From the NCBI RefSeq assembly GCF_048403405.1, contig NZ_CP183129.1: DNA of 64,000 bases, one strand, 5' to 3'. This DNA is from Escherichia coli (lineage in GTDB: Bacteria > Pseudomonadota > Gammaproteobacteria > Enterobacterales > Enterobacteriaceae). The position numbers and the translations under genes are program-made. Under the pieces are notes generated by a model. That model was given only the letters and a program-made list of their open reading frames with translations, was not told the origin of the DNA and ran no database searches. Shown piece by piece: positions 12,654 to 29,704 of the stretch. Within the stretch, counting starts at the first letter, position 1, and each line of letters opens with the position of its first letter.

Positions 12654-15206
12654 TTATTTACCTAGCATGAACTGCGATGGTGGGATCAGAAAGTCGTTAC
12701 CCTGCTCACGCTCAACACGGCGCTGATAACGCTCAAGAGAGCCTGGGTCAAGGGCATCTTGTATCCTGTTCAATATTAAACCATTCATCGCCGTACGAAG
12801 CCAGAACACGTTGAGGAATGGCGTATTGTCAAGTGCCGTGCGATACCAGTCACCCAAATCTGCATCCCCTCTCGTGGTCTGCTGGAGCAGCGTGATAATG
12901 CTGTCAGCGTTCGATGCTGCCGGTCCCATTAGCGACGTAACCGGCCCGGCCCCCATGCGGTTGACCTCGCCAAACATGAAGTCACCCAAGATGCCAAGAC
13001 CGCCCCCCTGAGATGCGGCTGCGAGAAACGTCTTGGCATCTGCCGGGCGTGGTGTTTGCCCTTTCAGCATGAGTTTTGACTGCATGGAGATATAACCAAA
13101 CATAGTCGCCCAGACAAAGAGGTTTGCAGCACCAAGGAAAGCCCCCTTCCCGTTACGTAGCAGCGCATTCGTCAGCGATCCGGTTTTCGACTCACCAAGC
13201 CCAGCAGGAATATAACCACGCCCGAATACTTCGCGTCCTAGTACGTTCTGCATGAAGCTTGCAGTGAACGATTTGTATTGACCAGCGAATCGTATTGCTT
13301 CCCCAGCCACCGTTCCTGGCACCGTGCCCATCTTCATAAACGCCTGCGTGCGATCGCCAGGCTCTGACATGGCGATATTCAGGCGGTCAAGGATGTAGCC
13401 GCGCAACTGCCCTTCCAATTGATCGCGTGCGTCAGCGATAGCGCGCTGCGTTGGCTTGATCCCCTTACTCTCTACATAACCGGCAATCACTTCGTCAGGC
13501 ACGCCGCGGATGCCGCTGGTCGTCATGAACTTACGACCTTCGCTATCGGCCATGTCCATGTTGCGAAAAATTTCCCACTCACGTTCGCCAATACCGTGCA
13601 GATCCAGCACGCGTCGCAGGTCTTCCGGTAGCCGCGCATGAGGCTGGTCAGCATTCTTTGCAAGCCAGTTGGTTATCATCATGGCGTTGCTGTTGCGACC
13701 GCTCTCGGTCCAGAAGTTCATGAGGTTGTACTTAAAGAAAAGCTGCTGCGCGCGACCAAGTTTTCCATTCAGCGTGTCATCACCAGATATGCGCCGGATG
13801 ATTTCCTGCGTCATGGAGTCGGAATAAACTCCGATAGAGGAAAGGATCTCTTTCTGCTCCGCGCTGTTGTAACGCGTGAAGCGGCCTCTCATAGCACCAA
13901 GCAACGCCTGCATAAAATTCTGCCCTTGGTAGCGCATCTCGGTAGCGGCGATAGGCACGTCGTTAAACGATGAGATTACCGCGCCACCAAGCTGGCTCAT
14001 ACGCAACCAGCCGCGTACAGCCGCCGACGCATTGGCCCAGCCTACGCTGCCAGGAATATTTAGCGAGCCGTCAACCTGCGGCATTACGGTACGGTTAATG
14101 CGACGCACCTTCGTCATGTAGTCAGCCAACGCTGCCGGTCTTCCGGATTTGCTGATATCTTCAGCAATGGTGTCCGTCAGGTACTTAAACATGTTCTGTG
14201 GGTTAGTGCCCAGTACGCGCATCATGCCCGTTGTGCGGGCAGCGCTGTTTAAGCCACCAAACAGCGCCTCTCGCAGGCTGCCAGTGCCGAATTGCTGGTT
14301 GTACTCGTGCCACGAGATACCATCTTTGAAGTGCAAAATTCGCTCTTGGCTGGCGCGTTTAGCTGCGTTCGCCGATCCCTTAAAGCCATTCATCCAATCT
14401 GGCTTTTCAGATGTAAGATGCACGCCGGAAGCCAGCCCGTTATAAATGTTACGCATGAACTGCTCGCGGTCAGCCACGCCGTCAAAAGTGCGCTCATCAA
14501 GGCGCGGGAGAATAGCATTTCGCCATGCTTCATAACCTGCGGCGCGGATCTTCATGATGTCGTGTGACTGGCGCACTATATAGCCCGGCTCTTTGCGTAT
14601 CCATGCCCCGGCGCGGTTCTCATCAATGCGCGCAGTTTCCTGCCATTTCATGATGATTTGTGCAGCGCTTACGGATTGCTTTGTCATACCGTCAGTTGAC
14701 TGCCCGCGCCCTATGCGCCACATTGCATCGGCAATTTCCCTGTCATTGCTGCCGCTGGCGATGAATTGCACCAGCCCGGCACGGTCAAAATCGTAGTTGA
14801 TACCGGAATGATACTTGCCGTGCAGTTGCGCCACCTCCGAAGATACCGACCGGCGGGCGCCGGTACGCGCATCGTTGCGGCCAACCAGCATTGCTTCAAG
14901 CCCGATATCCGGGCGGTCTTTCCAGATAGTACGAAGCTCTCTAAGTCGTTGTGCGGCAATACGGGTGTTGATTGCCTTATTGCGAGCCTCAATCTGTTTT
15001 GCCAGCATATCGGCATTGCTCAGTTCTTCCGCTGCGCGCATCGCGGCCTCTTCCAGAGACAGCGCCTCATTGGTCGCCAGAATTCGCCTAGTGGTGTCGT
15101 TCATGTCACGCACCAGCGACTCCATCTCATCGGAAGAAAGCTCGCGACCAGCGGCAGCATTTACACTGCGCTCGCACTGCGTCAAAAATTCGTTTGCTGC
15201 CATCAC
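12654..15206 (-). CDS. large hypothetical protein (850 aa), third gene of a tightly packed giant-ORF block; possible phage internal-virion/ejection-type protein
   Basis: Long uninterrupted ORF, 4-nt overlap with upstream gene; no domain recognised by eye. Confidence 0.65.
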   Translation of the reverse strand: MMAANEFLTQCERSVNAAAGRELSSDEMESLVRDMNDTTRRILATNEALSLEEAAMRAAEELSNADMLAKQIEARNKAINTRIAAQRLRELRTIWKDRPDIGLEAMLVGRNDARTGARRSVSSEVAQLHGKYHSGINYDFDRAGLVQFIASGSNDREIADAMWRIGRGQSTDGMTKQSVSAAQIIMKWQETARIDENRAGAWIRKEPGYIVRQSHDIMKIRAAGYEAWRNAILPRLDERTFDGVADREQFMRNIYNGLASGVHLTSEKPDWMNGFKGSANAAKRASQERILHFKDGISWHEYNQQFGTGSLREALFGGLNSAARTTGMMRVLGTNPQNMFKYLTDTIAEDISKSGRPAALADYMTKVRRINRTVMPQVDGSLNIPGSVGWANASAAVRGWLRMSQLGGAVISSFNDVPIAATEMRYQGQNFMQALLGAMRGRFTRYNSAEQKEILSSIGVYSDSMTQEIIRRISGDDTLNGKLGRAQQLFFKYNLMNFWTESGRNSNAMMITNWLAKNADQPHARLPEDLRRVLDLHGIGEREWEIFRNMDMADSEGRKFMTTSGIRGVPDEVIAGYVESKGIKPTQRAIADARDQLEGQLRGYILDRLNIAMSEPGDRTQAFMKMGTVPGTVAGEAIRFAGQYKSFTASFMQNVLGREVFGRGYIPAGLGESKTGSLTNALLRNGKGAFLGAANLFVWATMFGYISMQSKLMLKGQTPRPADAKTFLAAASQGGGLGILGDFMFGEVNRMGAGPVTSLMGPAASNADSIITLLQQTTRGDADLGDWYRTALDNTPFLNVFWLRTAMNGLILNRIQDALDPGSLERYQRRVEREQGNDFLIPPSQFMLGK

Positions 15207-16900
15207 ATCCCCCGGTTAATCATACAGGCGGCAAATGCCCGGAAAGCGTTGCTCATGCTATTGTCGCTGGCGTCGGCACGAATATCATTGAGTTTCTGGC
15301 GCAACGTGGTCGCAAGATCAGGGTTATCGACAGCGATATCGTCAAGCAGGGCGTTACTCAGGTTGAGCTCGTTATCAAGGTCTGCAGCGGCAGCGGTAAT
15401 TTCATGATCTGCCTTTTGCGTTTCTTGATAAACCCGATCGGCTGTTTCGCTTGCTGGGCGAGCCGTTTCATCAACCTGCCGTGCCGGATTCTGTATGCGA
15501 TGGATGGCGCGTTCACGCAGTGCCGGTTTGTGCAGTTCATAGAAGGGCTCAACATCTGGGCTACGTCCTTCCATCATGTGTGCCAGCGCAGCGCGATACG
15601 CCTGCTGGTTCACGCTCCAGTCAGCATCCCTGATGGCGCTTGCGGCAGTGCGAACTGCGCCAGCGACCGGCGACATCTGCATGCCGTCCAGGATCTGCTG
15701 CGCACGCTCGGAAATGGTGACTTTCAGGTCGTCGGGGATCTCGCCGCGGGAAATCTGAGACTGGCGCCAGCGCGCCTGCTCTGCTGTCGCGTTCTGCTCC
15801 AGCGATGTGTTGATCTCCTGATTGCGTGCAGCGATGGCGTCTTTCTCGGCCTGAATCTCTTTCAGTGCCCTAGAGCGCGCATCCTTAAACTTCATCCGCT
15901 TCCCCTGATACTTTTTGGTGCGCTGTTGCAGCGTCGCATCAAGCGAGTCAGCATGACGTTGATTAGCCGCAAGCTCGGCACGCAGGTCGGCAACGTTACC
16001 GATCTGCCCGCTCTGTAACTCCTGCTGGCGCGCCATATAGTCAGGAACCACGTCGTCATAAGCCCGGCTGTATGCGTAGCTCTCCGCTTCACTGGAAATG
16101 GCCGCCGCCAGATCTGCGTTAGCGCCAACCTCAGGGATATTCACGCCCGCCGGAATGTTGTCAGGCGTTATCACCGGGGTTGGCTGCGCATCGCCAGAAA
16201 ACTCCGGGGACTCTCCCGTTGCAGCATCGGGAACGCGACGCGGTCGCACGATATCGGCGATAAGGCCGCCGCCGGCATGCATTAGACCGCCAGCCATCGT
16301 GTTAAAGAAAGTACTTTCCAACGCGTTGCTATAGGTGAAGTCGTCACCTTCCGCCGCCGCTGCCAGCCCGGTAAGCGGCACGGTCACCACCGCCTGCGCT
16401 GCCCCCATGCGTGCACCAGCAACAAATCGCTCGCCAAATCGGCCAAGCACAGAAGCTGCCTTTGCTTCTCCAGCGAACGGAACCAGCGCCAGCGCCACGT
16501 TACCAGGATCTGCCATTGAACCAGCTAGGCTGGCTGCGAAATTAAGCGGCGTGGCTACCCACCCGCTCGGTGCCGACATCGCAATCTGCTGGCGTGCCAG
16601 AGAATCTTTGCGTTCGGCAATAACATGATCGAGAAAAGCCTGCGTAACGCCAGAATCTGGCACGTTTATGCTCTTTACGCCGTACTGCTTCAGGAGCTCA
16701 TCTGCGTCCTGCTTACTGATAACTGTAGAGTTTGGGTCATTCGCCAGCGAGTCGGCCTGCGCAAAGCGGTAGCCGGACATGACCGGCCCCTCTTCAAATC
16801 CCTGCTTAAGGGAAGAAAGCAGCGATTCGCCAAGCCCTGCTGGCGCGTTGCCAATTGGCTGGTTAATGCCCTGTCCCGGATCATCTGTGTAAATTGGCAT
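15203..16900 (-). CDS. large Ala/Gly-rich hypothetical protein (565 aa), second gene of the giant-ORF block
   Basis: Long ORF with hydrophobic Ala/Gly-rich segments and a coiled-coil-like C-terminal half; packed against flanking genes. Confidence 0.65.
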   Translation of the reverse strand: MPIYTDDPGQGINQPIGNAPAGLGESLLSSLKQGFEEGPVMSGYRFAQADSLANDPNSTVISKQDADELLKQYGVKSINVPDSGVTQAFLDHVIAERKDSLARQQIAMSAPSGWVATPLNFAASLAGSMADPGNVALALVPFAGEAKAASVLGRFGERFVAGARMGAAQAVVTVPLTGLAAAAEGDDFTYSNALESTFFNTMAGGLMHAGGGLIADIVRPRRVPDAATGESPEFSGDAQPTPVITPDNIPAGVNIPEVGANADLAAAISSEAESYAYSRAYDDVVPDYMARQQELQSGQIGNVADLRAELAANQRHADSLDATLQQRTKKYQGKRMKFKDARSRALKEIQAEKDAIAARNQEINTSLEQNATAEQARWRQSQISRGEIPDDLKVTISERAQQILDGMQMSPVAGAVRTAASAIRDADWSVNQQAYRAALAHMMEGRSPDVEPFYELHKPALRERAIHRIQNPARQVDETARPASETADRVYQETQKADHEITAAAADLDNELNLSNALLDDIAVDNPDLATTLRQKLNDIRADASDNSMSNAFRAFAACMINRGM

Positions 16901-16901
16901 G

Positions 16902-19523
16902 TTATCGTCCTGATTGCTGGCCGTTCTGGAAAATGTTAATCAGGTTGTCGCGCTGACTTTCTGCGCTGTATTCCTTAGACTGTCCGGGAGTATATTTCAC
17001 CGGAGTATCAATGAACTTGGTAATGCTGTTCCATACTGATCGGTTGGTTGTTCCCAGTTTCGCCAGATCGTTGAACGGCACCGTAATCGGGTTGCCGTCG
17101 GCACCGTTGACGATCAGCCCGTTGAGCATCAGGGTAAGTCCTGTTTCGTCGCTGTTGGTAACCCACTGCGCATTATCACGAATGCGGGAGATACTCTGCT
17201 CACGGTTGACCTCATCAGGTAGCCTTGGGTCACCAATAAGCGGCATAATCTGATCTGCTGACAGGTTTTTCAGATACGCATTGGCACCATCGTTAACGTC
17301 ACGAATATCTATCCCTGCACGCTTAGGTAGCCGCCAAGTGCCATTGGTCTGATACTGCTCGCCGAGGATGTCCTGATACGCCTGTTTTGCTGCATCAGAC
17401 GCCGACATTCCGCGCTGCATGTTGATGTAAGTAAGTCGTTTTCCCTGCTCGTTGAAGTTATTCCACACGGCAGTGCCACCAGGCTGAACAACCATCGTGC
17501 CAGCAAAATCTTTCGATTGGTCATTCCATGACGAGTCGGCGCTATCCGCGTCGGTTTTCTCAAGACTGCCGCGTAAGTCAGCAGTTTTAACGCTACGGTT
17601 TTGCCAGAGCGCATTTGCCGCGCGCGGGTTCTCGGTAGCCATGACAACCTGCAACGCAGGATAAGCGCTCTTCTGAACCTGCTGCATCACCTGATCCGAG
17701 TATTTTCCGAACGACTGCGCCACCGACTGAATGGCCTTTACGCTAGATTCCTGCGTGTTGTCAATACGCTGCAGTACGTCGTTGACCATGGACTCCGGTA
17801 AAACTTTTTTGCTCATTATCCCCAGGCGGTCTTTTTCAGACTGTATGCGGGAAACTAGGTATTCACCAGATGAAGGGTCATTGAGGTACTGCTGGAATGC
17901 AGCCTGCACAACCGGAGAGTTTTGTTGCAGCCATGCCCCCGGATCCGCTTCCCGCGCCTTCAGTACCTGCCCAAGCTTGACCTTTGCCGATGCATAAAGC
18001 TCGGCTTTGTATTTAAAGTCAGGGTCGTTTTCCTGCGGTGCCATTGCCTGCACGGCGGCGGTACCCTGCTGGACGTTGCCCTGCATGATGGTCTGATAAA
18101 CAGGTTGTAGCGTCATTGCCTGCTGGTATTGCTGGAAGGTTTTTTCCATCTGCAGGCGCTCGGCAGGCGCTGCCTGAAGCGGCATAACGGCGGCCCATTC
18201 GTGCGCTGAAATAGGCGTCACCTGCTTACCGGCCTCAATTTTGGATAGGTCGTCCTGCATTCGACTCTGTAGCGCAACGCGACCGGCTGAAGCCTGCATG
18301 TCGTACATGCCAGCAACCTTGCTCATCATCTGCGACTTTTTGTCCGGACTCATGGCGTTCCAGAATGGCTGTGCGATGAGGTTTTCCATCGTCGCAGATC
18401 CAGGAATAGCTCCAGCACTGCCAGTTACTTTTGCCACATAATTGCGCGTCTCGTCGTATGGGATAGCTGCGGCAAACTGGGCGTTACTGACTTCGCCTGT
18501 GCGCGGATCGCCAATCTGTTTAATCCAGCCGTCAACCTTTCCTGGGCCAGCGTTATAGGCAGCTACTGCCAGAACCGGGTTATTGTCGTATTTCTTCATC
18601 TGCGCGCCGAAATAAGCTTGCCCCAAGCGGGCATTATAGCGCGGGTCATTCAACCATTTATCTCGGTCCCACGGCACACCAGCAAGGCGGGCAGCTTCGG
18701 GGCCAGTATCTTCCGTCACCTGCGCTACGCCAACAGCGCCTTTTGGCGACACCAGAGGTGTTCCGTCCTTTCCGTACTGATTTCCGCCACTCTCCTGCCA
18801 GATTATTGCAGAGAATAACTGCGCCTCACTCGGTGTATCGGTTACCTCAATCTTGCCGTTCGGCCCCATCATCTGTTGATACATCGGCACATACCACGCC
18901 TCCGCCGCACCGTTCGCGGCATTCTCGCGCCACGAAACCCAGTTCTGTTCGATCTCTTCCTGACTCTGGCCGTGTGCTTCGCCGTAAGCGATGATGCTAT
19001 GATATGCCTTCAATCCTGCCTGGTTTGCCATTGTCGGGTTACGGAACTGCATCGATAGGTTTTTTAGTGTCGCATCCTGCATATCCGCCTCATACTGGCG
19101 AACCTGTCCTATTTCGTACCTCCCAGCCTGCGTAGTGAACTGAATGCGCTGCTGCTGCGCCTGCTGCATGAAAGCATTACGAGCCTGTTCATCCGGCAGC
19201 GACATAGCCAGTTGTTCGACCTGAGCATCAAACTGCTGCGTATACTCCTGACCTTTTCCAATAGCATTTTTCCCTTTCAGGTTAAGCAAACCTGTTTCAG
19301 GGTTATTCAGCAGATCGCTGCCTGTCTGACTGAGTTTAAGGGATGCCTCCTGAACCAAGGCAATATTGGCACGCTGTTTTGCCTGACCCAGAACATCAAT
19401 TGCCTCTGCTCCTGCACGAACAAAAGCATCACTAATACCTGGCTGAGAAAACGTCTGCAAGCCTGCTGACTGAACTCCACGGCTCTCAACCTGACGTCCG
19501 GATACTGTTGGTACGACTGGCAT
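16902..19523 (-). CDS. large protein (873 aa) with internal soluble lytic transglycosylase (SLT) domain
   Basis: SLT catalytic motifs in the translation: ...IIWQESGGNQYG...VGVAQV...AYNAGPGKVDGW; remainder Gln-rich. Confidence 0.75.
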   Translation of the reverse strand: MPVVPTVSGRQVESRGVQSAGLQTFSQPGISDAFVRAGAEAIDVLGQAKQRANIALVQEASLKLSQTGSDLLNNPETGLLNLKGKNAIGKGQEYTQQFDAQVEQLAMSLPDEQARNAFMQQAQQQRIQFTTQAGRYEIGQVRQYEADMQDATLKNLSMQFRNPTMANQAGLKAYHSIIAYGEAHGQSQEEIEQNWVSWRENAANGAAEAWYVPMYQQMMGPNGKIEVTDTPSEAQLFSAIIWQESGGNQYGKDGTPLVSPKGAVGVAQVTEDTGPEAARLAGVPWDRDKWLNDPRYNARLGQAYFGAQMKKYDNNPVLAVAAYNAGPGKVDGWIKQIGDPRTGEVSNAQFAAAIPYDETRNYVAKVTGSAGAIPGSATMENLIAQPFWNAMSPDKKSQMMSKVAGMYDMQASAGRVALQSRMQDDLSKIEAGKQVTPISAHEWAAVMPLQAAPAERLQMEKTFQQYQQAMTLQPVYQTIMQGNVQQGTAAVQAMAPQENDPDFKYKAELYASAKVKLGQVLKAREADPGAWLQQNSPVVQAAFQQYLNDPSSGEYLVSRIQSEKDRLGIMSKKVLPESMVNDVLQRIDNTQESSVKAIQSVAQSFGKYSDQVMQQVQKSAYPALQVVMATENPRAANALWQNRSVKTADLRGSLEKTDADSADSSWNDQSKDFAGTMVVQPGGTAVWNNFNEQGKRLTYINMQRGMSASDAAKQAYQDILGEQYQTNGTWRLPKRAGIDIRDVNDGANAYLKNLSADQIMPLIGDPRLPDEVNREQSISRIRDNAQWVTNSDETGLTLMLNGLIVNGADGNPITVPFNDLAKLGTTNRSVWNSITKFIDTPVKYTPGQSKEYSAESQRDNLINIFQNGQQSGR

Positions 19524-20192: not shown

Positions 20193-20609
20193 TTAGCCTC
20201 CGACTCTTCCGTAGCGCTGTTCTGGTGGATTCACATAGCCCCTTTCTTGCAGGTATTCGCGAATATCAGACATCAGGAGACGGTTAACCGTGCTCTTGTC
20301 TTTTCTCCGGTAAAGGCGTCTGGTGATCATGAAGTAGTTAGCAATGACCTCCGGTATATCCCTGACGCTGATACATGCTGTATGCTGGTCAATAGCTTCA
20401 ATCATCTCTTCACGAGTTACAAAAGTCTGGCGTAAACGAGTGATCACACCATGTACATCTGAACGATCATTTATACGCTTATTTTGGCGCTTCGCGCTCT
20501 CGACTGTGACACTGACAATAATGTCAACTCTTTGTTTTTCCGCCATTTCATCCACAATGTGATCACCTGCACGGCGACCATGTGCGTGATCATTTCTTAC
20601 TATTTCCAT
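20193..20609 (-). CDS. hypothetical protein (138 aa)
   Basis: ORF overlapping the end of the FinO/ProQ-like gene by 20 nt on the same strand; basic, possibly nucleic-acid binding. Confidence 0.5.
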
Positions 20610-21087
20610 TCATCTCCTCCAGTAGTTTTCCTGCGTGCGTCTGTTGTAGTGGTGTTACCTCGCCGCACGGCTGGCCTTTCAGGTCGTAACGCGCGCCACC
20701 AGCTACCAGGGCGCGGTAATAGCGCGGAGTCTGCACATAACGCGCCAGCGTTGCGCGTAGTGTTCCCTGTCCGAGTGAAATACCTCTCGCGGCAATATCC
20801 TGTATCAGGTCGTCAAATATCCCCACCTTAAGCGGCTTAGGTGATTCCGGGCTGAATAATTCAGGCCATAGCTCAATAAGACGGTTAACGCGTCTGCGGT
20901 TTTTACGCTGCTGTTTGGTCATACGCCGCCGCGGTGTTGCTCCTGTGAGCTTCTGCTGTGTGTTCTGGTTATCTGGCATCACTTTATGCGCCGATGTGGT
21001 TTTATTCTGCTGCTGCGCCGCCTGTGCTGTTTTCTGCGGCGTGCCGTAAATGCCCTTCGGTTTTCTGTTTATGGTCAGCTTTGTCAT
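20590..21087 (-). CDS. FinO/ProQ-domain RNA-binding protein
   Basis: Central region ...[76 protein letters not shown]... resembles the ProQ/FinO N-terminal domain; basic N-terminal tail. Confidence 0.75.
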
Positions 21088-21123
21088 GCCTTCCCCTGTA
21101 ATTACTCTGTTCGCTGTTGTGAA

Positions 21124-21546
21124 TTAAAACGGTATCCCGTCCCCGTACGGATCGTCGTTACCCGCCTGTTGTTTTGCCCTGTTCAGTGCGTCAGTAGCCT
21201 GCCCTTGCTGGCCTTTTTTGCCGCCCGGTCGCGCCGTTCTCGCACTGATTACGCTGTCTGCGATAACCTGCCAGCCCTGCCGCGTTTCGCCGTTCTGGCC
21301 TGTCCACTGGCTTACCTGCATGTTACCCGCCACGCTCACCAGTTCGCCTTTGTGGTGTTTTGCCAGTGCGTCGGCCTGTCTGCCAAACGCCAGGACGGAT
21401 AACCACATCGTCGCCGTTCCGTCATCTGCCTGATTGCATGGAAGGGGGACCGCCATACTCGCCATCGCCATTTGTGTGCCCTTGCTGGTGGTCTTTAACT
21501 GCGGGTCAGCCACCAGCCGCCCGTAAGCTGATATTTGCGCCGTCAT
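21124..21546 (-). CDS. single-stranded DNA-binding protein (SSB-like OB fold)
   Basis: OB-fold pattern (AYGRLVADPQL...W...FGRQAD...KGELVSVAGNMQVSQW) and acidic C-terminal tail ending DGIPF, as in the SSB DIPF tip. Confidence 0.7.
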   Translation of the reverse strand: MTAQISAYGRLVADPQLKTTSKGTQMAMASMAVPLPCNQADDGTATMWLSVLAFGRQADALAKHHKGELVSVAGNMQVSQWTGQNGETRQGWQVIADSVISARTARPGGKKGQQGQATDALNRAKQQAGNDDPYGDGIPF

Positions 21547-21756: not shown

Positions 21757-23883
21757 TTAATCTTCTGCTTCAGGCTGGAACATCAGCACGTAAAAAATAT
21801 GCTGCTTCCCGCCAATCCTGCCGAGCGCCTTTTTCTTGTAACGGCGGTCGCCTCCCGCTTCCAGCATTCCGGCAGCACTCAACGCGCGGGCAAAGTGAGA
21901 CGGATTAAATCCCTGTGCTATCTCACCCTCAAACACATGCGGGAACGTGTAAAAACGGAACTCGTCATCTTCGTTTCTGATACTCCCCTTTCTGTATCCG
22001 GCAAGGTCTTTAATCGGTAAATCACGCTCGTCGCTGTTTGGATAGGGAAGGTATCGACTGAACCCGAACGACGACAAAAACGCCTCAGCCTGTTCAACCA
22101 TCTGTTTAAATTCCCTGTTGCCCGTGCCGAATTCCTTCACCCAGGCATTAAAGTTATGCTGAACTGCATCACGGCACGCCTGAACATCCCAGCCTGTAAC
22201 ATGACCGGAAAGCACAAGCGCGGCCTCCAGTACGGCGAATCTTTCCCCCACACGGTGAACCTGCTCGCCGTAGCTCTCCGGTATCAGGTTGCGCCACCGC
22301 TCGCGACATGCCCTTACCGCGTCCTTTGCCTCCTGCTGGTGACCTGCCAGCCATTTAACCCACTCACGACCTGCCGCCCCGTGATTTTCTGTCCAGGCAT
22401 CTTTTAACGCGTCTGCGTGCGCCTTTCCGGTGCTGTATTCGTGAAACTGCGATGCCTTTTCCATCGGCACGTTAAGCAGACGGACAAGCTGCCCCGCTTT
22501 AATTTTTATCCCTTCCGTTTTGAGGAATGTTTCAACGTCCATTTCTCCGGTGCTGATTGCCACCGTGCGCCAGTGTTTTATCTCCCTGTTGCCGCCGTCC
22601 TTCGCCCCCTGTAATTTCCCGGAACCGTTAAACAGCGTATAGGCTGACGTGGACACCTCCCGCGCGTTTCCGGCCTGGCCTATTTCATCCAGGGGTAACA
22701 GCCCGTCATTATGTGCTTCGGCCTCGTTGGCGATACCTAACGCCGTTCCGTACCAGGTCAGCCGTTGCGCGTCCGGCTCTCCCCATAAACTTGATGCAAT
22801 GTTCTGTGTGGTGGTTTTACCTGCTGATGATTGCTCAAAAAGATGAACCCCGAAGCCGTCAGCACCCACCAGCCCGATTAATGGTGCGGATAGCGATACC
22901 GCCACACCCAGCATCATGGACGGATTACCACCAGCCAGCCGTGCCACGGTATCGCGCCAGCCCTCCGCTGTTCCCGCCACGGAATAGCCATTAACAGCGG
23001 CAGTTTTTCCGGTAAACAGGATGGGTTTCTCTGATTCACCAATGACCGAACCATCCGGCATGATGTACGCACCAAAATGCCACCCCGTTGTTGTGCTTAA
23101 CTGCCATTCCTCATGGTTTCCGCTTAACTGCATCCAGTCAGCCAGGATAGCCCTGTATTTGCCGTTGGTCGTCACGTTAAGGCCGTGGTCTTTCAGCAAC
23201 CGCCAGCCGTCACGGTCACCAATGCCTCCGCACGGGACCGCCATTGTAATGACCTCATGGTTTGCTGGTTTTTTCCAGCGCATCACGCGGTAATGCTCTT
23301 TGCCGATTGTTCCTGTTCCCAGTAGTTCAAGCGGAGAACATAACCACGTCTCAGGCCGGATAATTTCGCCTGACTGCTTGTCCACTTTGGGCGTTACCCA
23401 GAAAACACCATCGACGCGACTTTCAACACGAGGCTTTAATTCGTCATCATAATTTCCGGTGAAATTTGTCTTCGCCGGAAGGTTGATCACCAGACTGTTA
23501 CCGCGTTCCGCATCATCCTTCAGTCCAGCCATGCGCGGTGTCCAGTCCTCCGGCTGCTGATCAACAAAGCTGCGGTAGCAACGCGCCTCCTTCACACCCG
23601 CCACTGCAAGCAGTGTCGCTATCTGTGTAAGGTGCTGCTCTGATATTTCACCAGCACGATAAACGCGCACGTAATAGCGCCCTTTGTCGATGATTTGCGT
23701 GTCTGCCAGACTCGCCAGTTGTTCCGGTCCAAGAATAACTGGATGTGTATCATCTGCCGCAATATGCTTTCCGGCCCATTCGCTCCACTCTTTCGCATGT
23801 GCCCAGGCATCACTACCCGCAAAGATAATCACCTCCGTCATTTTGTCTTTCGGCTGGTGCTTTAAATTCGGTGCGCGTTTCAT
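21757..23883 (-). CDS. primase/helicase-type replication initiator (P-loop NTPase, P4-alpha/DUF927-like)
   Basis: 708-aa ORF with Walker A-like FEQSSAGKTTT; followed by iteron ori as in satellite rep genes. Confidence 0.7.
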   Translation of the reverse strand: MKRAPNLKHQPKDKMTEVIIFAGSDAWAHAKEWSEWAGKHIAADDTHPVILGPEQLASLADTQIIDKGRYYVRVYRAGEISEQHLTQIATLLAVAGVKEARCYRSFVDQQPEDWTPRMAGLKDDAERGNSLVINLPAKTNFTGNYDDELKPRVESRVDGVFWVTPKVDKQSGEIIRPETWLCSPLELLGTGTIGKEHYRVMRWKKPANHEVITMAVPCGGIGDRDGWRLLKDHGLNVTTNGKYRAILADWMQLSGNHEEWQLSTTTGWHFGAYIMPDGSVIGESEKPILFTGKTAAVNGYSVAGTAEGWRDTVARLAGGNPSMMLGVAVSLSAPLIGLVGADGFGVHLFEQSSAGKTTTQNIASSLWGEPDAQRLTWYGTALGIANEAEAHNDGLLPLDEIGQAGNAREVSTSAYTLFNGSGKLQGAKDGGNREIKHWRTVAISTGEMDVETFLKTEGIKIKAGQLVRLLNVPMEKASQFHEYSTGKAHADALKDAWTENHGAAGREWVKWLAGHQQEAKDAVRACRERWRNLIPESYGEQVHRVGERFAVLEAALVLSGHVTGWDVQACRDAVQHNFNAWVKEFGTGNREFKQMVEQAEAFLSSFGFSRYLPYPNSDERDLPIKDLAGYRKGSIRNEDDEFRFYTFPHVFEGEIAQGFNPSHFARALSAAGMLEAGGDRRYKKKALGRIGGKQHIFYVLMFQPEAED

Positions 23884-24182
23884 TTCTTGCCCCTGAATGC
23901 GTTAATCATGTTCTTTATTACCTGAATATTTGCCCGTGCTTTCTCTTTACTGGTGGGCTTACTGCGTGGTACTGCACATACCAGTGAAAAATCACGCCGG
24001 AACTGATGAACGGGCATCACACAGTCATAGTCGTACCCTGCGCGGCGGTATGTAATGTGCCGTTCATACACGGAATTAATAACCACGCTGTCACCATATT
24101 TATCCCGGAAAATATCCCCGATCCTGATTTTCGGGTGAGTCTGTCCGCTGGCATTTAAGCCAGTAAATTTAATCTTCTTCAT
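23880..24182 (-). CDS. hypothetical protein (100 aa)
   Basis: ORF overlapping primase/helicase start by 4 nt. Confidence 0.5.
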   Translation of the reverse strand: MKKIKFTGLNASGQTHPKIRIGDIFRDKYGDSVVINSVYERHITYRRAGYDYDCVMPVHQFRRDFSLVCAVPRSKPTSKEKARANIQVIKNMINAFRGKK

Positions 24183-24184
24183 GT

Positions 24185-24442
24185 TTATTTCCCGGTGTGA
24201 GGTTCTTCTTTATATTTATGGGCTAACAAATCTGGTAATTGCCTGTATTTATCCTCGGCAATATATTCAGAATAATCGACAGCACTGTTCAGTATATCTA
24301 ACGCCGTTTCATGCTCCAGATTCGAAACTATAAGGAACGTTGCTACTTTTAGCATATTCGCGATATGCAAAAGAGCATCAATTTCATTTTTTGGCGCTTC
24401 ACTGAATTTTTGCTCCAGAAGAATAAATCGTTCATCACGCAT
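24185..24442 (-). CDS. hypothetical protein (85 aa)
   Basis: ORF in the same operon orientation, 2 bp from downstream gene. Confidence 0.5.
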   Translation of the reverse strand: MRDERFILLEQKFSEAPKNEIDALLHIANMLKVATFLIVSNLEHETALDILNSAVDYSEYIAEDKYRQLPDLLAHKYKEEPHTGK

Positions 24443-24638
24443 AGTATTCCCCCTGACGGATGCGGGCAGTAAATACCATCACGCAGCCAGCCGGGGATTG
24501 CTGACGGGCTTCCTGTTCGCTGGCGGCCTCGATGTGTATTACGCGTGGTTGTGCGGTGCTCAGGGCGATAAAACGCCAGATGTATTTATTCAGGTTGTGC
24601 GAGTCCCGCCCTTGCGGGTGTGTGGTATGATTTAACAT
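24435..24638 (-). CDS. small protein (67 aa); possibly an Icd-like cell-division-inhibitor type protein
   Basis: C-terminal 67 codons of the 345-aa ORF have normal composition and overlap the next gene by 8 nt; the rest of that ORF looks like antisense artefact. Confidence 0.35.
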   Translation of the reverse strand: MLNHTTHPQGRDSHNLNKYIWRFIALSTAQPRVIHIEAASEQEARQQSPAGCVMVFTARIRQGEYYA

Positions 24639-24699
24639 AGCTACCTCGATACGCTTTCTATCGTTGGTGGTTAGACGCCCTGCATGTGTTGCGAGCACT

Positions 24700-24795
24700 G
24701 CGGGGCGTTGCTTAATTTGAGCAATGCAACCCAAACTGTGCGCACAGATTAAAATCATGTGTGCGCACATGTCAATACTTAACTTCTCACTTTTT
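24700..24795. promoter_or_regulatory. candidate operator/promoter region with TGTGCGCACA-type palindromes
   Basis: ctgtgcgcacag, tgtgtgcgcacatg and tgtgtgcgcccatc within ~90 bp, upstream of the + strand small gene at 24844. Confidence 0.4.
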
Positions 24796-24843
24796 TTGCT
24801 GTATTGTGTGCGCCCATCAAATCCATTTAAGTGAGGTGTACCA

Positions 24844-25041
24844 ATGTCTAGCGGAAACACAAACAACAAATCAGCAAAGAAAAATATTCGATTCCCGCAC
24901 GAGCTTATAGATGGGATTGATGCCAGTGTTGAACAAGAAAAATTAACTAATCCTAGTGCTAATTTTTCCGCATGGGTCTTAGATGCCTGTGGACGCAAAT
25001 TAAAATATGAACAGCGCCGGAAGGCCAAAGAGCAGGAGTAA
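24844..25041 (+). CDS. small DNA-binding protein, possibly ribbon-helix-helix
   Basis: 65-aa ORF with RHH-like segment IRFPHELIDGIDASV; C-terminus ...RRKAKEQE. Confidence 0.45.
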   Translation: MSSGNTNNKSAKKNIRFPHELIDGIDASVEQEKLTNPSANFSAWVLDACGRKLKYEQRRKAKEQE

Positions 25042-25098
25042 CCATCACCAGCGCCGTGGTGCGGTGAACTGTGGCGCACAGGGTTACAGGTATCTACG

Positions 25099-25296
25099 AT
25101 GACTGACAAATCATTAAAGAAATTATCCTCATCCAGGAAAAAACAACGCAAAAATGCGGTAAGCGAACAAGAACAGGAAAGATTTGCGCCATGTGCGTTT
25201 GTCCTTGAGAAGTTCTTAAAAGAGTACAGGCGCACAAAAATGGGATCGCATACCTGGAAAACATCGCAGTATGGCGATGCTAAAGAGCAGGAATAG
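25099..25296 (+). CDS. small basic protein (65 aa), shares C-terminal motif with upstream gene
   Basis: C-terminus ...YGDAKEQE repeats the AKEQE ending of the 24844 gene. Confidence 0.4.
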   Translation: MTDKSLKKLSSSRKKQRKNAVSEQEQERFAPCAFVLEKFLKEYRRTKMGSHTWKTSQYGDAKEQE

Positions 25297-25464
25297 CCCA
25301 CCAGCAAGCCAGCACACTGATCACATTGCCCACCAGCCGCAAATCTGGCATTGTTGGCGATGCGTTTGATTTCCTTTGTTCCCACTGGCGACCTATCCCG
25401 GTCGCCTTTGTTTTGCCTGTTATCCAGCAACGGGGCGCTTTTTCTTTCTGTAACGTTCGGATCG

Positions 25465-26208
25465 TTACGCATGGCTGCTCACCTCCATGCGGCGGGCTAA
25501 CCAGCGTTGCGAAAGACGAATTAATTCAGCTTTCCGCTGGTGGTAGTCCTGGCCTAACTCAATCAGCGTGATATTGCTCTGCTCAAGGTAAGAAAGGTGC
25601 TCAAGCTGCAGCGTGCTCATGTGGTCGCGTGGTTCGCCTGTGATGCCGTTCGCCTGCGCCCACTGTTTTGCAGTCATGCCACCCAGCACGATACGCGCCA
25701 GCATATTGGCTTCCGTGGTGTAGTGGTGCTGGAGCGTGTTTTTACCCAGTTCAGCGCGGTACGCCTCCAGCGCGGCACACATCGGCTTAAAGTAGCTGGC
25801 AACGGTGATACGGGCTTTCAGTTCACGGCGTAACGCTGCGGAACGCACTGGCGCTACTTTGTGTAGCTCCTCCTCGCATTTGATGAAGTACTGACGAATA
25901 GCGCGGCCCTGTTCGGTACGCTCGACCATCGCAAGTTCTTTCGCCATGTTGATGGTACTCAGGTAGTCGTGCTCTACACGTTGGCGAGATTTTGCGCTCA
26001 CCGGATTGGGGGAGGTCAAATTTTCTACAAACTCAAAATCCACGCCATTTTTAAATCCGTACTGATCAATACGCCCTTTAATCCATGTAGTGAAATCACG
26101 CTTCACACCAAGCGCCTTATGTAACGCTCTGGCGCTGACAATGGCTGTTTCATGTCCGCCAATAATGCCAGGTGATACCGGAATAAGTGCGGCGAAATCC
26201 TTAAGCAT
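25465..26208 (-). CDS. phage antirepressor-like protein (KilAC/Ant-type)
   Basis: 247-aa ORF whose C-terminal half resembles KilA-C antirepressor domains; position between Rha-like and replication genes. Confidence 0.6.
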   Translation of the reverse strand: MLKDFAALIPVSPGIIGGHETAIVSARALHKALGVKRDFTTWIKGRIDQYGFKNGVDFEFVENLTSPNPVSAKSRQRVEHDYLSTINMAKELAMVERTEQGRAIRQYFIKCEEELHKVAPVRSAALRRELKARITVASYFKPMCAALEAYRAELGKNTLQHHYTTEANMLARIVLGGMTAKQWAQANGITGEPRDHMSTLQLEHLSYLEQSNITLIELGQDYHQRKAELIRLSQRWLARRMEVSSHA

Positions 26209-26899
26209 GATTTACCCCCAGATACGGCTCAGATGTCATCAGGCTGGCGAATGTCTCCATGCGTCGGGCAACCTCCCGCACTGCTTCGGTAGGTGTCATG
26301 CCGTTCTGTATCGCCTCCTCAAATGCGGCCTGTTCGATTTTCTGCATGACAATCAGCAAGCCTAACTGCTGCTCGCTGGCTGTGCCTCGTTCGCCAGTTA
26401 CCAGACCTGTAACACGGTTCTCTGCGCGTGCCAGATTGATGTAATGGTGACGTTCTGCGCCCAGTGCTTTAAGCCCGTCACGGCTTTCGTGATAGCCTGG
26501 CAGATATTCACGGCGTACAGGCTCGGTAGCGCGATGTTTTGCGAATGCCTTCGTAACATCCAGCTTGAAGCGGTTCATGCGTTCATCATCACGACCGCGC
26601 ACAATGCGACACATGTAATCAAACTGATCGCTATTCAGGAGGGCAAACTTATGTTCACGCTCCCCGTTTTGACGGGTTTTTAATCGCTCCGTTTGAAACG
26701 GAAGGATGCCCAGTTCACGCAATCCGGTTTTGTGCTTCTGAATGAGCGAATAAAGGTTTTTGTGCTTTATGCCAATACGCTCAGCAAATAAGCGGGAATC
26801 AATGCGCGACTCCGCTTTGTGGCGAACCAGAATATCGCTCATGCTGGTTTCAGGCCGAACGAAGCCCTGCCCCTGTACGGGCGTTTTTCGCAGTTTCAT
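26201..26899 (-). CDS. phage regulatory protein, Rha-like
   Basis: N-terminal segment ...RIDSRLFAERIGIKHKNLYSLIQKH... resembles Rha/ORF6N regulators. Confidence 0.55.
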   Translation of the reverse strand: MKLRKTPVQGQGFVRPETSMSDILVRHKAESRIDSRLFAERIGIKHKNLYSLIQKHKTGLRELGILPFQTERLKTRQNGEREHKFALLNSDQFDYMCRIVRGRDDERMNRFKLDVTKAFAKHRATEPVRREYLPGYHESRDGLKALGAERHHYINLARAENRVTGLVTGERGTASEQQLGLLIVMQKIEQAAFEEAIQNGMTPTEAVREVARRMETFASLMTSEPYLGVNHA

Positions 26900-26973: not shown

Positions 26974-27192
26974 TCAGGCTGATGTGTTTCGGCGTTCTGC
27001 CAGCCAGTTATTAATTTCCACCGCATCAAACGCAGTCACGTTATCTGTTAGCTTCACTGGGCGTGGAAGAGTGCCATTTTTAACCCATCTATCAATAGTA
27101 GGCAGTGAAACACCTAGCAATTCCGGCATGCGAAAGCGACGGATGTATCCAGTTGTTGGGATAGCTGATGATGCTGGCTTGTGTGCTGTCAT
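26974..27192 (-). CDS. alpA: AlpA-family transcriptional regulator (excisionase-like)
   Basis: 72-aa product with HTH ...MPELLGVSLPTIDRWVKNGTLPRPVKL...EINNWL; next to integrase as in P4-like islands. Confidence 0.75.
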   Translation of the reverse strand: MTAHKPASSAIPTTGYIRRFRMPELLGVSLPTIDRWVKNGTLPRPVKLTDNVTAFDAVEINNWLAERRNTSA

Positions 27193-27663: not shown

Positions 27664-28314
27664 TTAGTCGAGATCGTGGACAGCTAATAAAGCCCGTGAG
27701 ATTTTTTCTAGGAATGTGGCTTTTGCTATTCCTTTATGGGATATCCCTTCATCCTTGATTAAGGTTTCTATGTCACGGTATATAGCTGTGCGATTAGGTT
27801 TCCCATTTTGGATGTAGGAAGATGAGCCTGATTTTTTTATCAGCAGATGTACTATCAACCCCATCATTTTCATTGTCCCGTTTTCCTCATCCTGCTTTCT
27901 ATGCTGCCCACGTCCGCTGCGGTTGGTTTCTTTGATGTAGTTTACTAACTGGAGTCCTCCAAGGTTTCGGGCTTTTTCTTCCCAGCCCTTGGTGCCACGC
28001 AAATCATCAATCGCTTCTGATATTTTCTGAACAATTATTTCTGGTGTATTTGTGTCAATAAATGGGTAAGAAGCTAAGAAAATATCAAGGGCATGGCAAG
28101 GCTCGTCTTTACTAGTTTTTTCACCTCTGTACACCTTGATAGCTCTGGCAAGATGAGTTCTGACAAAATCGACATATTCGAAATTTTCCTCAGGCACATC
28201 GCTAATGCGCATAGATGGGTTTAGGCCAGCCAAGGCCACAGCCATTTCATGAGGGGTAATCGATACAGATGAACAAAGCCGTTCGATTGGCGATTTTCTC
28301 AAGATGTTGTTCAC
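27664..28314 (-). CDS. hypothetical protein (216 aa) in the int-alpA variable slot
   Basis: ORF overlapping int stop by 4 nt; AT-rich; no recognisable motif. Confidence 0.6.
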   Translation of the reverse strand: MNNILRKSPIERLCSSVSITPHEMAVALAGLNPSMRISDVPEENFEYVDFVRTHLARAIKVYRGEKTSKDEPCHALDIFLASYPFIDTNTPEIIVQKISEAIDDLRGTKGWEEKARNLGGLQLVNYIKETNRSGRGQHRKQDEENGTMKMMGLIVHLLIKKSGSSSYIQNGKPNRTAIYRDIETLIKDEGISHKGIAKATFLEKISRALLAVHDLD

Positions 28315-29579
28315 ATTTGCCTCCGGGCTTTATCGAATGGCGTTACGTTGTAGTCTTTCCCGCTTTCCAGTGCCACCAGCAGATCAGCCCACTGTGCCAG
28401 CGCAGCTTTACGCTCATCAAAATACTGATGGCGGTTATAAATCCCCTCCACACCCTTAATGCGATGATTGAGGCATCGTTCCGCTACGACAGGATCAACA
28501 CCCAATGCTGCTAAATGAGTACGTGCGGTACGCCGGAAGTCGTGAATCGTGAAATTAGGCACATCCGGCATTTCGGCGCGAACCTTAGCCAGTGCTACGG
28601 GTAAAGTGCTTTCCTGAATATGTGGGATCATTCTGTTTTGCATCTTCCTGGCTGGAAGCACCCATGCGCTATTACATGAAAAGGTGTGTAGCTCTCTCAA
28701 CCATTCAACGGCAGGAGAAGGTAGAGGTATATCAATAGGGTCTCCGTTTTTGCTGCGTTCTTCCGGCAAATGCCATACCGCACCATCTAAATCAAACTCT
28801 TCCCATCGTGCGGCGCATAACTCCATCTTACGAACGCATAGTGCCAGCAATAGCTTAAATGTCAGTTCGTTCTGGCGGCTGAATCCTTTTGCGGTGCGCA
28901 TAGCCTCGAATAGCCTGATAAGCTCATCGCGAGTTAGCCAACGGTCGCGGGAAACCTCTTTACCACCAGCATCAGATACTTCAAACGCTGAACAAGGGTT
29001 TATCTCCAGAGCGTGGCGTTTTATCCCATAGTCAAAGATACGGCGTGTCCAGCGTAATACATCTGTTGCTATCGTTGGTGCTCCTCGGTCAACGATACCT
29101 TTCAACATGTCGTCAATGTGGCGTGGCTTAACGTCCTCTACCTTCATATGCCCAATGCAGGGGTTAATATCCTTATCAATTCTCCGGCGAAGGATATCGG
29201 GATGTTTCCATCTCGGAAGTATCTGTCGCTCGAAGTATTCGGCGGCCAGATCTGAAACGCGCATGGCGTTTTTCTCAGCCTCCATTTTTGCCAGTGCTTC
29301 AGCTTTTCGTTCCTGTTTTTCTGCTGCTACGTCATAGCCAAGAGCAACTCTGGCTGACAGCTCTTTTGCTATTTCTCTGGCTTTTGATAGTGACAGTTCG
29401 GAGTAAGAGCCGATAACCATAGCCCGCTGTTTTCCTGCGAGCTTATATCGGAATCGCCAGAACGGGACTGTGTAGTTTTTGGGGTAGCAAATATAAAGGC
29501 CGTTGCCGTCTGCCTTGCCATCAAATCTGTCTCCCGCCTTTATCCATGCGCGGATCTGCATATCTGTGAGTTTTGGCAT
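28311..29579 (-). CDS. int: tyrosine recombinase/integrase, P4-type
   Basis: C-terminal catalytic region ...HDFRRTARTHL...NHRIKGVEGIYNRHQYFDERK...; start taken at MPKLTDMQIRAWIKAG (ORF track extends to 29663). Confidence 0.9.
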   Translation of the reverse strand: MPKLTDMQIRAWIKAGDRFDGKADGNGLYICYPKNYTVPFWRFRYKLAGKQRAMVIGSYSELSLSKAREIAKELSARVALGYDVAAEKQERKAEALAKMEAEKNAMRVSDLAAEYFERQILPRWKHPDILRRRIDKDINPCIGHMKVEDVKPRHIDDMLKGIVDRGAPTIATDVLRWTRRIFDYGIKRHALEINPCSAFEVSDAGGKEVSRDRWLTRDELIRLFEAMRTAKGFSRQNELTFKLLLALCVRKMELCAARWEEFDLDGAVWHLPEERSKNGDPIDIPLPSPAVEWLRELHTFSCNSAWVLPARKMQNRMIPHIQESTLPVALAKVRAEMPDVPNFTIHDFRRTARTHLAALGVDPVVAERCLNHRIKGVEGIYNRHQYFDERKAALAQWADLLVALESGKDYNVTPFDKARRQM

Positions 29580-29635
29580 TGCGAATACCTGAATATCGAA
29601 TATGGGTGTGTACATAAAGCAATGTACATGAAAGT

Positions 29636-29660
29636 CATTATGTACACCTCTATGTACACG
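29636..29660. repeat. 25-bp repeat with TGTACA(C/T) motifs (right copy), upstream of int
   Basis: Four TGTACA(C/T) motifs between 29608 and 29660; 22/25 match to 10823-10847. Confidence 0.5.
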
Positions 29661-29704
29661 CATATTGTGCGCTTTGTTGCGTCGTTATGATAGCTCATGA
29701 TAAC

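Follow-up and report, generated by a model that had tools for sequence, protein, structure and literature searches.

The proposed icd–ylcI control region

The 64,000-nucleotide stretch of Escherichia coli DNA analyzed here (contig NZ_CP183129.1 of assembly GCF_048403405.1; hereafter the window) carries, between the genes antA and orf85, a region in which features of the two strands are superimposed. A 67-amino acid (aa) icd/kil-like gene on the minus strand forms the 3′ end of an open reading frame (ORF) of 345 codons, and inside the limits of this frame lie the plus-strand genes ylcI and orf2 with their terminator, three operator-like palindromes, and a predicted cis-antisense RNA opposite the icd leader. 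In the interpretation that we favor, with somewhat better than even confidence for the whole, the region would govern immunity and early gene expression in a Gram-negative phage satellite, an integrated island resembling phage-inducible chromosomal islands (PICIs) and P4. Comparisons draw on related loci (designated L with a number) gathered from viral contigs (31) and from genomes of other Enterobacterales (38), in genera that include Serratia, Rahnella, Klebsiella, Pectobacterium, Xenorhabdus, Photorhabdus, Proteus, Arsenophonus, and Gilliamella.

Plus-strand genes and their terminator

A sequence-only reading of the window had described two plus-strand ORFs of 65 aa that both end in AKEQE, and these are present in one frame at 24844–25041 (ylcI) and 25099–25296 (orf2). 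Its view that they are real genes is borne out by profile matches. The product of ylcI belongs to the YlcI/YnfO (DUF3950) family and is a predicted ribbon-helix-helix repressor, scoring 59 bits against NF041551 (cut-off 30; E = 3.5e-16) and 28.3 bits against PF13132 (DUF3950; cut-off 25; E = 1.6e-6). An AlphaFold2 model from 16 homologues (predicted local distance difference test [pLDDT] score of 74) displays an extended N terminus and two helices, and this order of a strand followed by two helices is consistent with the predicted ribbon-helix-helix-like fold; matches of YlcI to HicB ribbon-helix-helix proteins were weak. The literature searched yielded no function for the YlcI, YnfO, DUF3950, or Icd-like families. 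The second gene, orf2, encodes a mosaic small protein that matches phrog_21027 (E = 6e-46). Its family comprises 44 protein clusters, all from Escherichia (58–74 aa, identity down to 64%), with a conserved core (ERFAPCAFxLExFLKE) and N- and C-terminal modules that reassort, and the gene is missing from most lineages outside Escherichia.

The shared protein ending corresponds, as had been pointed out, to a nucleotide repeat. The 11-mer AAAGAGCAGGA recurs at 25027–25037 and 25282–25292, at the two gene ends, and nowhere else in the window (0.03 occurrences expected by chance; a count of two reached in 0 of 100 shuffles), with similarity around it extending to 17 of 20 nt. YlcI ends in AKESE and orf2 in RTKSD or RTEPD in most related loci, and "...GDAKEQE" is one of the reassorting C-terminal modules of the mosaic orf2 family. 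AKEQE was considered as a functional motif or as the mark of a gene duplication and rejected, being confined to the sub-lineage of the window in a family whose C termini reassort. On this comparison, the ending is a lineage-specific peculiarity with no sign of function, for which a small gene conversion is a possible source.

The ylcI–orf2 transcript would end at an intrinsic terminator (25387–25416, plus strand) composed of GGCGACC-N6-GGTCGCC and TTTGTTTTGC; this hairpin, with TTTGTTTT after it, closes the plus-strand unit. The terminator is kept next to the start of the long minus-strand frame in other lineages, where the stems carry compensatory changes (GGCGGCC/GGCCGCC and GGCAGC/GCTGCC). 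Judged by these signals, the plus-strand unit is self-contained, consisting of a promoter, ylcI, orf2, and a terminator. Lineages without orf2 have a plus-strand stretch of ~100 nt between ylcI and the terminator that is conserved in distant loci (L026:3330–3600 and L028:3230–3500); it translates as "...FEIVGFAQRLKIRAP..." and gave no Rfam match at the gathering threshold in either locus.

Putative operators and predicted divergent promoters

The palindrome TGTGCGCACA occurs exactly at 24737–24746 and 24760–24769, and with one mismatch (TGTGCGCCCA) at 24807–24816, giving three sites in 80 bp as compared to only two further one-mismatch matches in the whole window. The corresponding operators are O1 (CTGTGCGCACAG; 24736–24747), over the predicted icd transcription start; O2 (GTGTGCGCACAT; 24759–24770), in the spacer of the icd promoter; and O3 (GTGTGCGCCCAT; 24806–24817), which overlaps the −10/+1 region of the ylcI promoter. 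Palindromes occupy fixed positions 5′ of ylcI in other lineages as well (three in the clade of the window, two in a second clade), O1 being conserved at −108/−99 and O3 at −38/−29 from the ylcI ATG, and O2 always abutting a conserved GTCAA, the reverse complement of the TTGAC of a −35 element. The predicted icd promoter, P(icd), on the minus strand (24748–24775) consists of TTGACA (24775–24770), a 16-nt spacer, and TTTAAT (24753–24748). Its −35 element (TTGAC) is conserved in all lineages and the remainder is assigned by sequence consensus; the promoter scan, whose rule demands an A at position 2 of the −10 element, did not call it. The predicted ylcI promoter on the plus strand (24779–24807; TTAACT, 17-nt spacer, TATTGT) is a weak consensus match, and a TAnnGT box directly before O3 is conserved. 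This is the pattern of a divergent-promoter switch upstream of the icd, DUF4222, DUF927 primase, and single-stranded DNA-binding protein (SSB) genes, in agreement with the operator role that the sequence-only reading had given to the palindromes. A GTG...CAC at the top of hairpin 2 of the RNA described below was considered as a fourth operator and rejected, as it does not covary with the operators.

The outer operator bases are constant (GTG/CAC, or TGGT/ACCA in the second clade), and the inner bases differ by lineage and covary with YlcI residues 11 to 14, just before an invariant IRF(P/E), across ~20 lineages in the two clades. YlcI AKKN is paired with operator TGCGCA in the clade of the window; further pairings are A/T/G-YKG with TTTAAA or GTAAAC, TTKG with CA(C/T)A(A/T)A, and ATKK with CGGCCA, and those of the second clade are KKN, SKI, MKH, and RRT with ACGT, ATAA, AGTT, and TCG(C/A), respectively. 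Because the inner bases covary with these residues, YlcI would read the operators through the strand of its ribbon-helix-helix, and YlcI is very likely the operator-binding repressor; orf2 is an unlikely binding protein because it is absent from most lineages. Two other possible explanations are that the palindromes are bound by a different protein (AlpA, Rha, orf2, or a helper-phage factor) or that they are recombination sites. Binding by YlcI is, after all, read from sequence, and the repeats do recombine, a 23-bp operator unit being duplicated in L010 and deleted in L017. However, the operator core shifts with the YlcI residues named above, most lineages that keep the operators have no orf2, the sites fall in the spacer, start site, and −10 element of two divergent promoters, and the operators accompany ylcI even where an island has no alpA or Bro genes, all of which makes a binder other than YlcI, or a recombination site, quite improbable.

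A predicted antisense RNA of the icd leader

A further element, absent from the sequence-only reading, is a predicted cis-antisense RNA of ~85 nt (24634–24719, plus strand) opposite the icd 5′ untranslated region, Shine-Dalgarno sequence, and start codon. Its parts are a lower stem (24640–24643/24668–24671), hairpin 1 (24647–24663, with its loop at 24652–24658), hairpin 2 (24674–24709), and a T-rich tail (24710–24719). nhmmer located the element in 68 of 72 sources, always in the orientation of ylcI. Over 44 unique sequences, 98.9% of cells in the three-helix structure are paired and 14 of the 22 pairs exhibit compensatory change, a level that was reached by 0 of 500 shuffles and approached by no slid register. 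The non-Watson-Crick cells amount to 129 G·U versus 0 A·C when read on the plus strand, pairing is only 85.5% when the minus strand is read, and the folding energy is −41.4 kcal/mol (z = −4.96) on the plus strand as compared to −25.4 kcal/mol (z = −2.28) on the minus strand.

A putative promoter for this RNA is an extended −10 element, TGgTATGAT (24623–24631, plus strand), which lies within icd codons 3 to 6 and is proposed from its consensus. The TAnnnT positions are kept in 42, 42, and 43 of the 44 unique sequences, which span many genera, and the overlapped icd codons vary; a G occupies −9 in 43 of the 44. The predicted RNA would begin close to the icd ATG (5′ end near 24637) and span the icd Shine-Dalgarno sequence and leader. 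After hairpin 2, the T-rich tail is clean in many lineages (TTGCTTTTTT). The same hairpins could instead act in the minus-strand icd leader, as an attenuator, RNase site, or protein-binding site, with the antisense RNA nonexistent. They also form on that strand, with the lower stability just given, one class has its Shine-Dalgarno sequence in the hairpin 1 loop of the mRNA, and P4 and P1 use RNAs derived from the sense strand. Yet the G·U cells without A·C, the drop in pairing on the minus strand, the near-invariant TAnnnT box at the right distance upstream on the plus strand, and a T-rich tail found after hairpin 2 on the plus strand only argue for a plus-strand RNA, and a function confined to the icd leader appears very doubtful.

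The 7-nt loop of hairpin 1 (24652–24658, plus strand) is hypervariable and is a candidate specificity determinant. Among 10 close relatives, five of the seven loop columns vary as compared to one of 76 in the rest of the RNA (five alleles; Fisher p = 4e-6), variation of the kind that characterizes specificity loops in antisense control. Rfam release 15 returned no family over 24100–25600, with C4, isrK, and c4-a1b1 unmatched at the gathering threshold and at E up to 10; the best hits were at chance level (DLG2-AS1_2, E = 0.022; R1162 antisense, E = 3.3, on the wrong strand). The ~85-nt element is predicted, from its conservation, to be a new cis-antisense RNA in place of the CI RNA of P4.

The icd-like gene and the long minus-strand frame

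The icd/kil-like gene (24435–24638, minus strand; 67 aa) matches NF033153 (phage_ICD_like; E = 3.5e-19) over residues 19 to 62. Its ATG at 24638 has a Shine-Dalgarno GAGG 5 nt upstream (24644–24647), and its stop overlaps the start of orf85 (ATGCGTGA, 24435–24442). P4 Kil matches the same NCBIfam family (1.6e-21), and the homology of the Icd part to P4 Kil is drawn solely from this shared profile. The Prokaryotic Genome Annotation Pipeline (PGAP) calls an Icd-like product of 111 aa from an ATG at 24770, inside O2, which adds 44 residues outside the domain; NF033153 begins at residue 63 of that form, and the 67-aa form is comparable to the 65-aa P4 Kil. The PGAP start is, by its position relative to the domain, probably an over-extension caused by the open frame.

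The gene is nested in-frame at the 3′ end of an eta-like read-through ORF of 345 codons (24435–25472, minus strand), whose ATG at 25472 sits behind GGAGG and overlaps the antA stop (ATGCGTAA). The sequence-only reading had noted this ORF and judged it probably artefactual save for its last 67 codons. These are indeed the sole part that matches a recognizable protein family: outside the Icd part there is no Pfam or PHROG match, Phage_ASH included, the N-terminal part is Cys/Ser/Leu-rich low-complexity sequence, and the only stretches conserved between lineages are those opposite conserved plus-strand features such as ylcI, the terminator, and the RNA hairpins. The frame itself, however, does not behave as an artefact. 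Over the noncoding icd–ylcI interval (157–232 nt), it is free of stops in 22 of 27 sequence-distinct lineages; of the two remaining minus-strand frames, one is stop-free in 1 lineage and the other in 0 (mean 4.4 and 6.0 stops). It is open for 165 to 500 codons in most of 70 loci and continues 110 to 1193 nt beyond ylcI, also where orf2 is absent. Where an Icd-like domain was detected beside ylcI, it forms, in most loci, the C-terminal end of a frame that measures 200 codons or more from stop to stop. At least 10 lineages start the frame at an overlap with the stop of the upstream gene (ATGA, GTGA, or ATGnnTAA, the last as ATGCGTAA) behind a Shine-Dalgarno sequence, and the genes upstream of these coupling junctions differ (AntA, Bro-N, or others). 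The architecture is also that of P4 eta with kil nested in it (PMC10111431). The nucleotide repeat of ylcI and orf2 fails as the explanation that had been offered for the long ORF, because the repeat is lineage-specific and the open frame is general. The sequence-only reading thus stands for the small genes, the operators, and the last 67 codons, and lacks support on the artefactual nature of the ORF.

Two of the possible explanations for the long ORF depart from our own. First, it may be a chance "shadow" of the K/E-rich plus-strand genes, untranslated upstream of the icd start, with only the repressor/operator switch functional. Synonymous-codon simulations leave the antisense frame open in 85% of cases for YlcI and 49% for orf2, and never for four control proteins of the window (0 of 3000). 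Overlap is cheap here, since the third codon positions of both strands coincide; for the same reason, codon-position periodicity has no power in this region and is unusable for choosing between ylcI/orf2 and the long frame. The lack of a domain outside Icd and the omission of the ORF by PGAP fit a shadow too. Against it stand the stop-free frame in DNA that codes on neither strand, the extension beyond ylcI even without orf2, the starts that overlap upstream stops, and the icd–ylcI phase, which is conserved except where 23-bp operator indels occurred (an operator plus spacer gained in L010 and lost in L017, both breaking the icd/long-ORF phase). A chance shadow is, on balance, distinctly improbable.

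Second, the long ORF may encode a functional Eta-like "Bro network" protein that is active in its N-terminal 278 residues, with the plus-strand genes truly overlapping within it. P4 Eta matches Phage_ASH over residues 37 to 161 (4.5e-23) and eta is called a Bro-network gene in PMC10111431; the length of the ORF is conserved, its start shows translational coupling, and of the possible phases its wobble-matched one suits dual coding best. We nevertheless regard such a protein as unlikely: the window ORF matches neither Phage_ASH nor anything else outside Icd, its N terminus is of low complexity, its conservation only mirrors plus-strand features, and its length ranges from 165 to 500 codons. Moreover, icd is not nested in-frame in every locus, the Icd-like gene of L023, L038, and L040 being in a frame other than the ylcI-antisense frame, and that frame in L028 closing shortly before icd begins, an arrangement suggestive of ribosomes that terminate and then re-initiate.

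We conclude from these comparisons that the long frame is maintained open by selection. Because family matches are lacking outside Icd and conservation only mirrors the plus strand, it is probably being translated that matters, with the product upstream of the Icd domain irrelevant. By analogy with P4, the frame is probably kept open so that, with ribosomes translating it, read-through transcription reaches the genes for the cell-division inhibitor and for replication. A natural control is provided by the subclade of L042, L045, and L052 (Brenneria, Pectobacterium, and Symbiopectobacterium), in which ylcI abuts the integrase gene, there is no alpA/Bro operon upstream to read through from, the divergent minus-strand gene is not icd, and the frame is closed (24–116 codons). 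Because these loci retain the operators and the RNA element beside a non-Icd gene, the ylcI module is seen, from its genetic context, to be able to control early genes other than icd. In L010 (2767–4400), a second ylcI-like/orf2-like pair is present and the antisense frame is open for 500 codons; the deletion in L017 lies at 2800–3000.

Island context and distribution

The window is chromosomal E. coli DNA, and the island integrated in it reads, on the minus strand, int, alpA, rha, antA, the control region, icd, orf85, DUF4222, DUF927 primase, and SSB. Pfam matches identify the integrase (28311–29663), AlpA (26974–27192; Phage_AlpA), Rha (26201–26899; Phage_pRha), AntA (25465–26208; AntA), and the primase (21757–23883; DUF927), all on the minus strand, and membership in the PICI/P4-like class is supported in that int, alpA, the Bro-network genes, and the primase gene all share one orientation. 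Downstream of the primase, the same strand carries SSB, likewise a Pfam match, then a ProQ/FinO protein and cargo genes. The ProQ/FinO-domain protein (165 aa) lies directly 3′ of the island SSB, within 20590–21546 (minus strand), and an RNA chaperone beside an antisense RNA-controlled replication module may be of relevance. Minus-strand cargo at 12091–19523 encodes an 873-aa protein with an SLT transglycosylase domain and then proteins of 565, 850, and 186 aa; the latter three have no Pfam match, and the Pfam scan recognized no capsid or packaging genes in the cargo. The sole gathering-level Rfam match in the window is the C0299 small RNA (RF00119; 39281–39359, minus strand; 111.9 bits). The int-alpA RNA (RF02996) was found in L020, L025, and L026 and was not detected in the window, and the 64 kb contain no tRNA genes.

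A copy of the island in NZ_CP148435 is 99.9% identical and annotated alike by PGAP. Parts of the 24100–25600 query, mostly the icd and antisense RNA stretch, matched in 1431 of 5426 complete E. coli genomes, with up to six matching places per genome, and the ylcI module is distributed across Enterobacterales. A phage collection searched by DNA and protein gave one weak record only; the module is essentially absent from deposited phage genomes.

Proposed mechanism

In a quiescent island, YlcI dimers on O1 and O2 would shut the internal icd promoter, and YlcI on O3 would provide autoregulation. The antisense RNA would pair with any icd leader that is made, blocking icd translation, and the untranslated icd RNA would be terminated by Rho before the replication and primase genes, by analogy with P4 kil/timm and P1 c4/icd. 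An indirect hint for Rho is that the minus-strand icd RNA is C-rich and G-poor (C/G 1.4–1.8 at 24640–24481). When a helper phage switches on the alpA operon, transcripts would enter from upstream, and ribosomes would pass from antA into the 345-codon frame and on through the operators, the antisense RNA target, and icd. Initiation at the icd ribosome site would then be dispensable, and transcription would stay coupled to translation and reach the primase genes, the role that eta has in P4.

Several observations weigh against this mechanism. In the window, hairpin 2 is followed by an imperfect T-tract (TTGCTTAATTTG), at which the terminator scan made no call. PGAP leaves the long ORF unannotated, part of its openness comes at no cost because YlcI and orf2 are K/E-rich, and 5 of 27 lineages have a closed frame. 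Coupling is not universal, the first in-frame start of L003 and L005 being ~136 nt past the upstream stop. The eta-specific part lacks homology to P4 Eta (E of about 1 for the 345-aa ORF by BLASTP, and no Phage_ASH). Finally, we infer the promoters, RNA ends, Rho dependence, and DNA binding alike.

A broader proposal, which we advance tentatively and at appreciably less than even confidence, is that DUF3950/YlcI proteins are the resident repressors of a large class of Gram-negative satellites. Their lock would have three layers (a ribbon-helix-helix repressor with operators, a new cis-antisense RNA family, and Rho polarity), would be released when ribosomes translate a long ORF whose sole purpose is its own translation, and would have immunity groups defined by rapidly diversifying operator/residue pairs and loop alleles. 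If this were true, the long ORF of the lock would wholly contain, on the opposite strand, the repressor gene, its partner gene, and their terminator. The region itself would be a clean natural case of a frame conserved for its openness rather than its product, overlapping real antisense genes in wobble-matched phase, with a bearing on how long "shadow" ORFs are treated in genome annotation and in studies of overlapping genes. The predicted antisense RNA would add a new RNA family, well supported by covariation. The module may interest satellite and RNA biologists alike, and the case for it rests entirely on comparative sequence evidence.

Comparison with known systems

The immI region of P22 contains the ribbon-helix-helix repressors Arc and Mnt, the divergent promoters Pant and Pmnt, and the sar antisense RNA, and the gene controlled is ant rather than icd or replication genes. 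No sequence homology between P22 immI and the window module was detectable, and we know of no long read-through ORF over the P22 region. The immI operon of P1 and P7 (c4 antisense RNA, icd, and ant), reportedly worked out by Heinrich, Citron, Schuster, and co-workers, also contains an Icd-family gene, at which an RNA targets the initiation of translation; antirepressor-family genes share the operon, and downstream transcription is controlled through translation. Its C4 RNA arises by processing of the sense transcript and acts at target sites present as repeats, and to our knowledge the operon has no embedded ribbon-helix-helix gene. In contrast to P1 and P7, the window has no Rfam C4 match and the opposite gene order, antA preceding icd.

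Gram-negative PICIs are ordered into integration, "Bro," replication, and late zones, according to Mageeney et al. 2023 (PMC10111431), which also notes C4-type RNAs in the Bro zone. The window island has the same order, with an integration zone (int and alpA), a Bro zone (Rha and AntA), a replication zone (primase and SSB), and cargo, and the immunity function, a proposed one in the window island, is located within the Bro zone in both. The searched text of Mageeney et al. 2023 and of Fillol-Salom et al. 2018 (PMC6092414) reports only C4/isrK-type immunity RNAs and unidirectional genes, and contains no description of an opposite-strand module of ylcI, operators, and antisense RNA. The literature searched likewise yielded no description of a ribbon-helix-helix/DUF3950 repressor module in PICI-type islands, of the ~85-nt antisense RNA of the icd leader, or of an eta-like frame that wholly contains opposite-strand genes. 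Whether Gram-negative PICIs have a repressor is called unclear by Fillol-Salom et al. 2018 (PMC6092414); the module offers a concrete candidate for it, and its context points to a function, operator-binding repressor, for DUF3950/YlcI.

The closest parallel is with P4. As set out in PMC10111431, which summarizes Forti et al. 1999 (PMID 10464191), P4 eta is translated only from the upstream late promoter, coupled to an alpA homologue, and its translation prevents the immunity-dependent termination by which transcripts of the internal promoter are stopped. In the P4 immunity region, which has the promoters PLE and PLL, kil is the 3′ end of the 214-codon eta (8168–8812); the CI/C4 RNA gene and the seqA region both fall within eta, whose stop overlaps the start of the next gene (epsilon) by 8 nt. 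The window has the same layout: a Kil/Icd gene of the NF033153 family makes up the in-frame 3′ end of a long ORF, and this ORF spans a predicted internal early promoter and a proposed immunity determinant, is coupled to the upstream alpA-side gene, overlaps the next start by 8 nt, and has a replication primase downstream, with the predicted P(icd), inside the long ORF, as the analogue of P4 PLE. The differences lie in the parts. CI/C4, isrK, and seqA RNAs are all in P4 and none is matched in the window, whose immunity determinant would combine a protein repressor and its operators with a cis-antisense RNA, encoded within the long ORF on the other strand; P4 Eta residues 37 to 161 match Phage_ASH and the window ORF does not; the primase is of the DUF927 type rather than P4 alpha; and orf85 gave no significant BLASTP match to epsilon. 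The Phage_ASH stretch of P4 Eta (L033, 8329–8701) coincides with DNA that encodes the CI/C4 RNA and isrK-like/seqA elements, and what this Pfam family models may be, for the most part, RNA genes that are translated as part of a read-through frame. The two kinds of module also occur together. L004, L008, and L017 match P4-type C4/isrK RNAs, and in these E. coli islands (L004:2184–3497, L008:2259–3638, and L017:1821–2935) the ylcI module is followed by isrK, C4 RNA, and a second kil, the tandem lying inside one long minus-strand frame of up to 460 codons; because the ylcI module and the P4-type module adjoin, these islands would carry two immunity systems in tandem. The kil/eta principle is already known, and the window is a variant of it with a protein repressor and an antisense RNA. 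The P4 logic of translating a long frame to escape immunity would thereby appear to be general and independent of the immunity effector that lies inside the frame.

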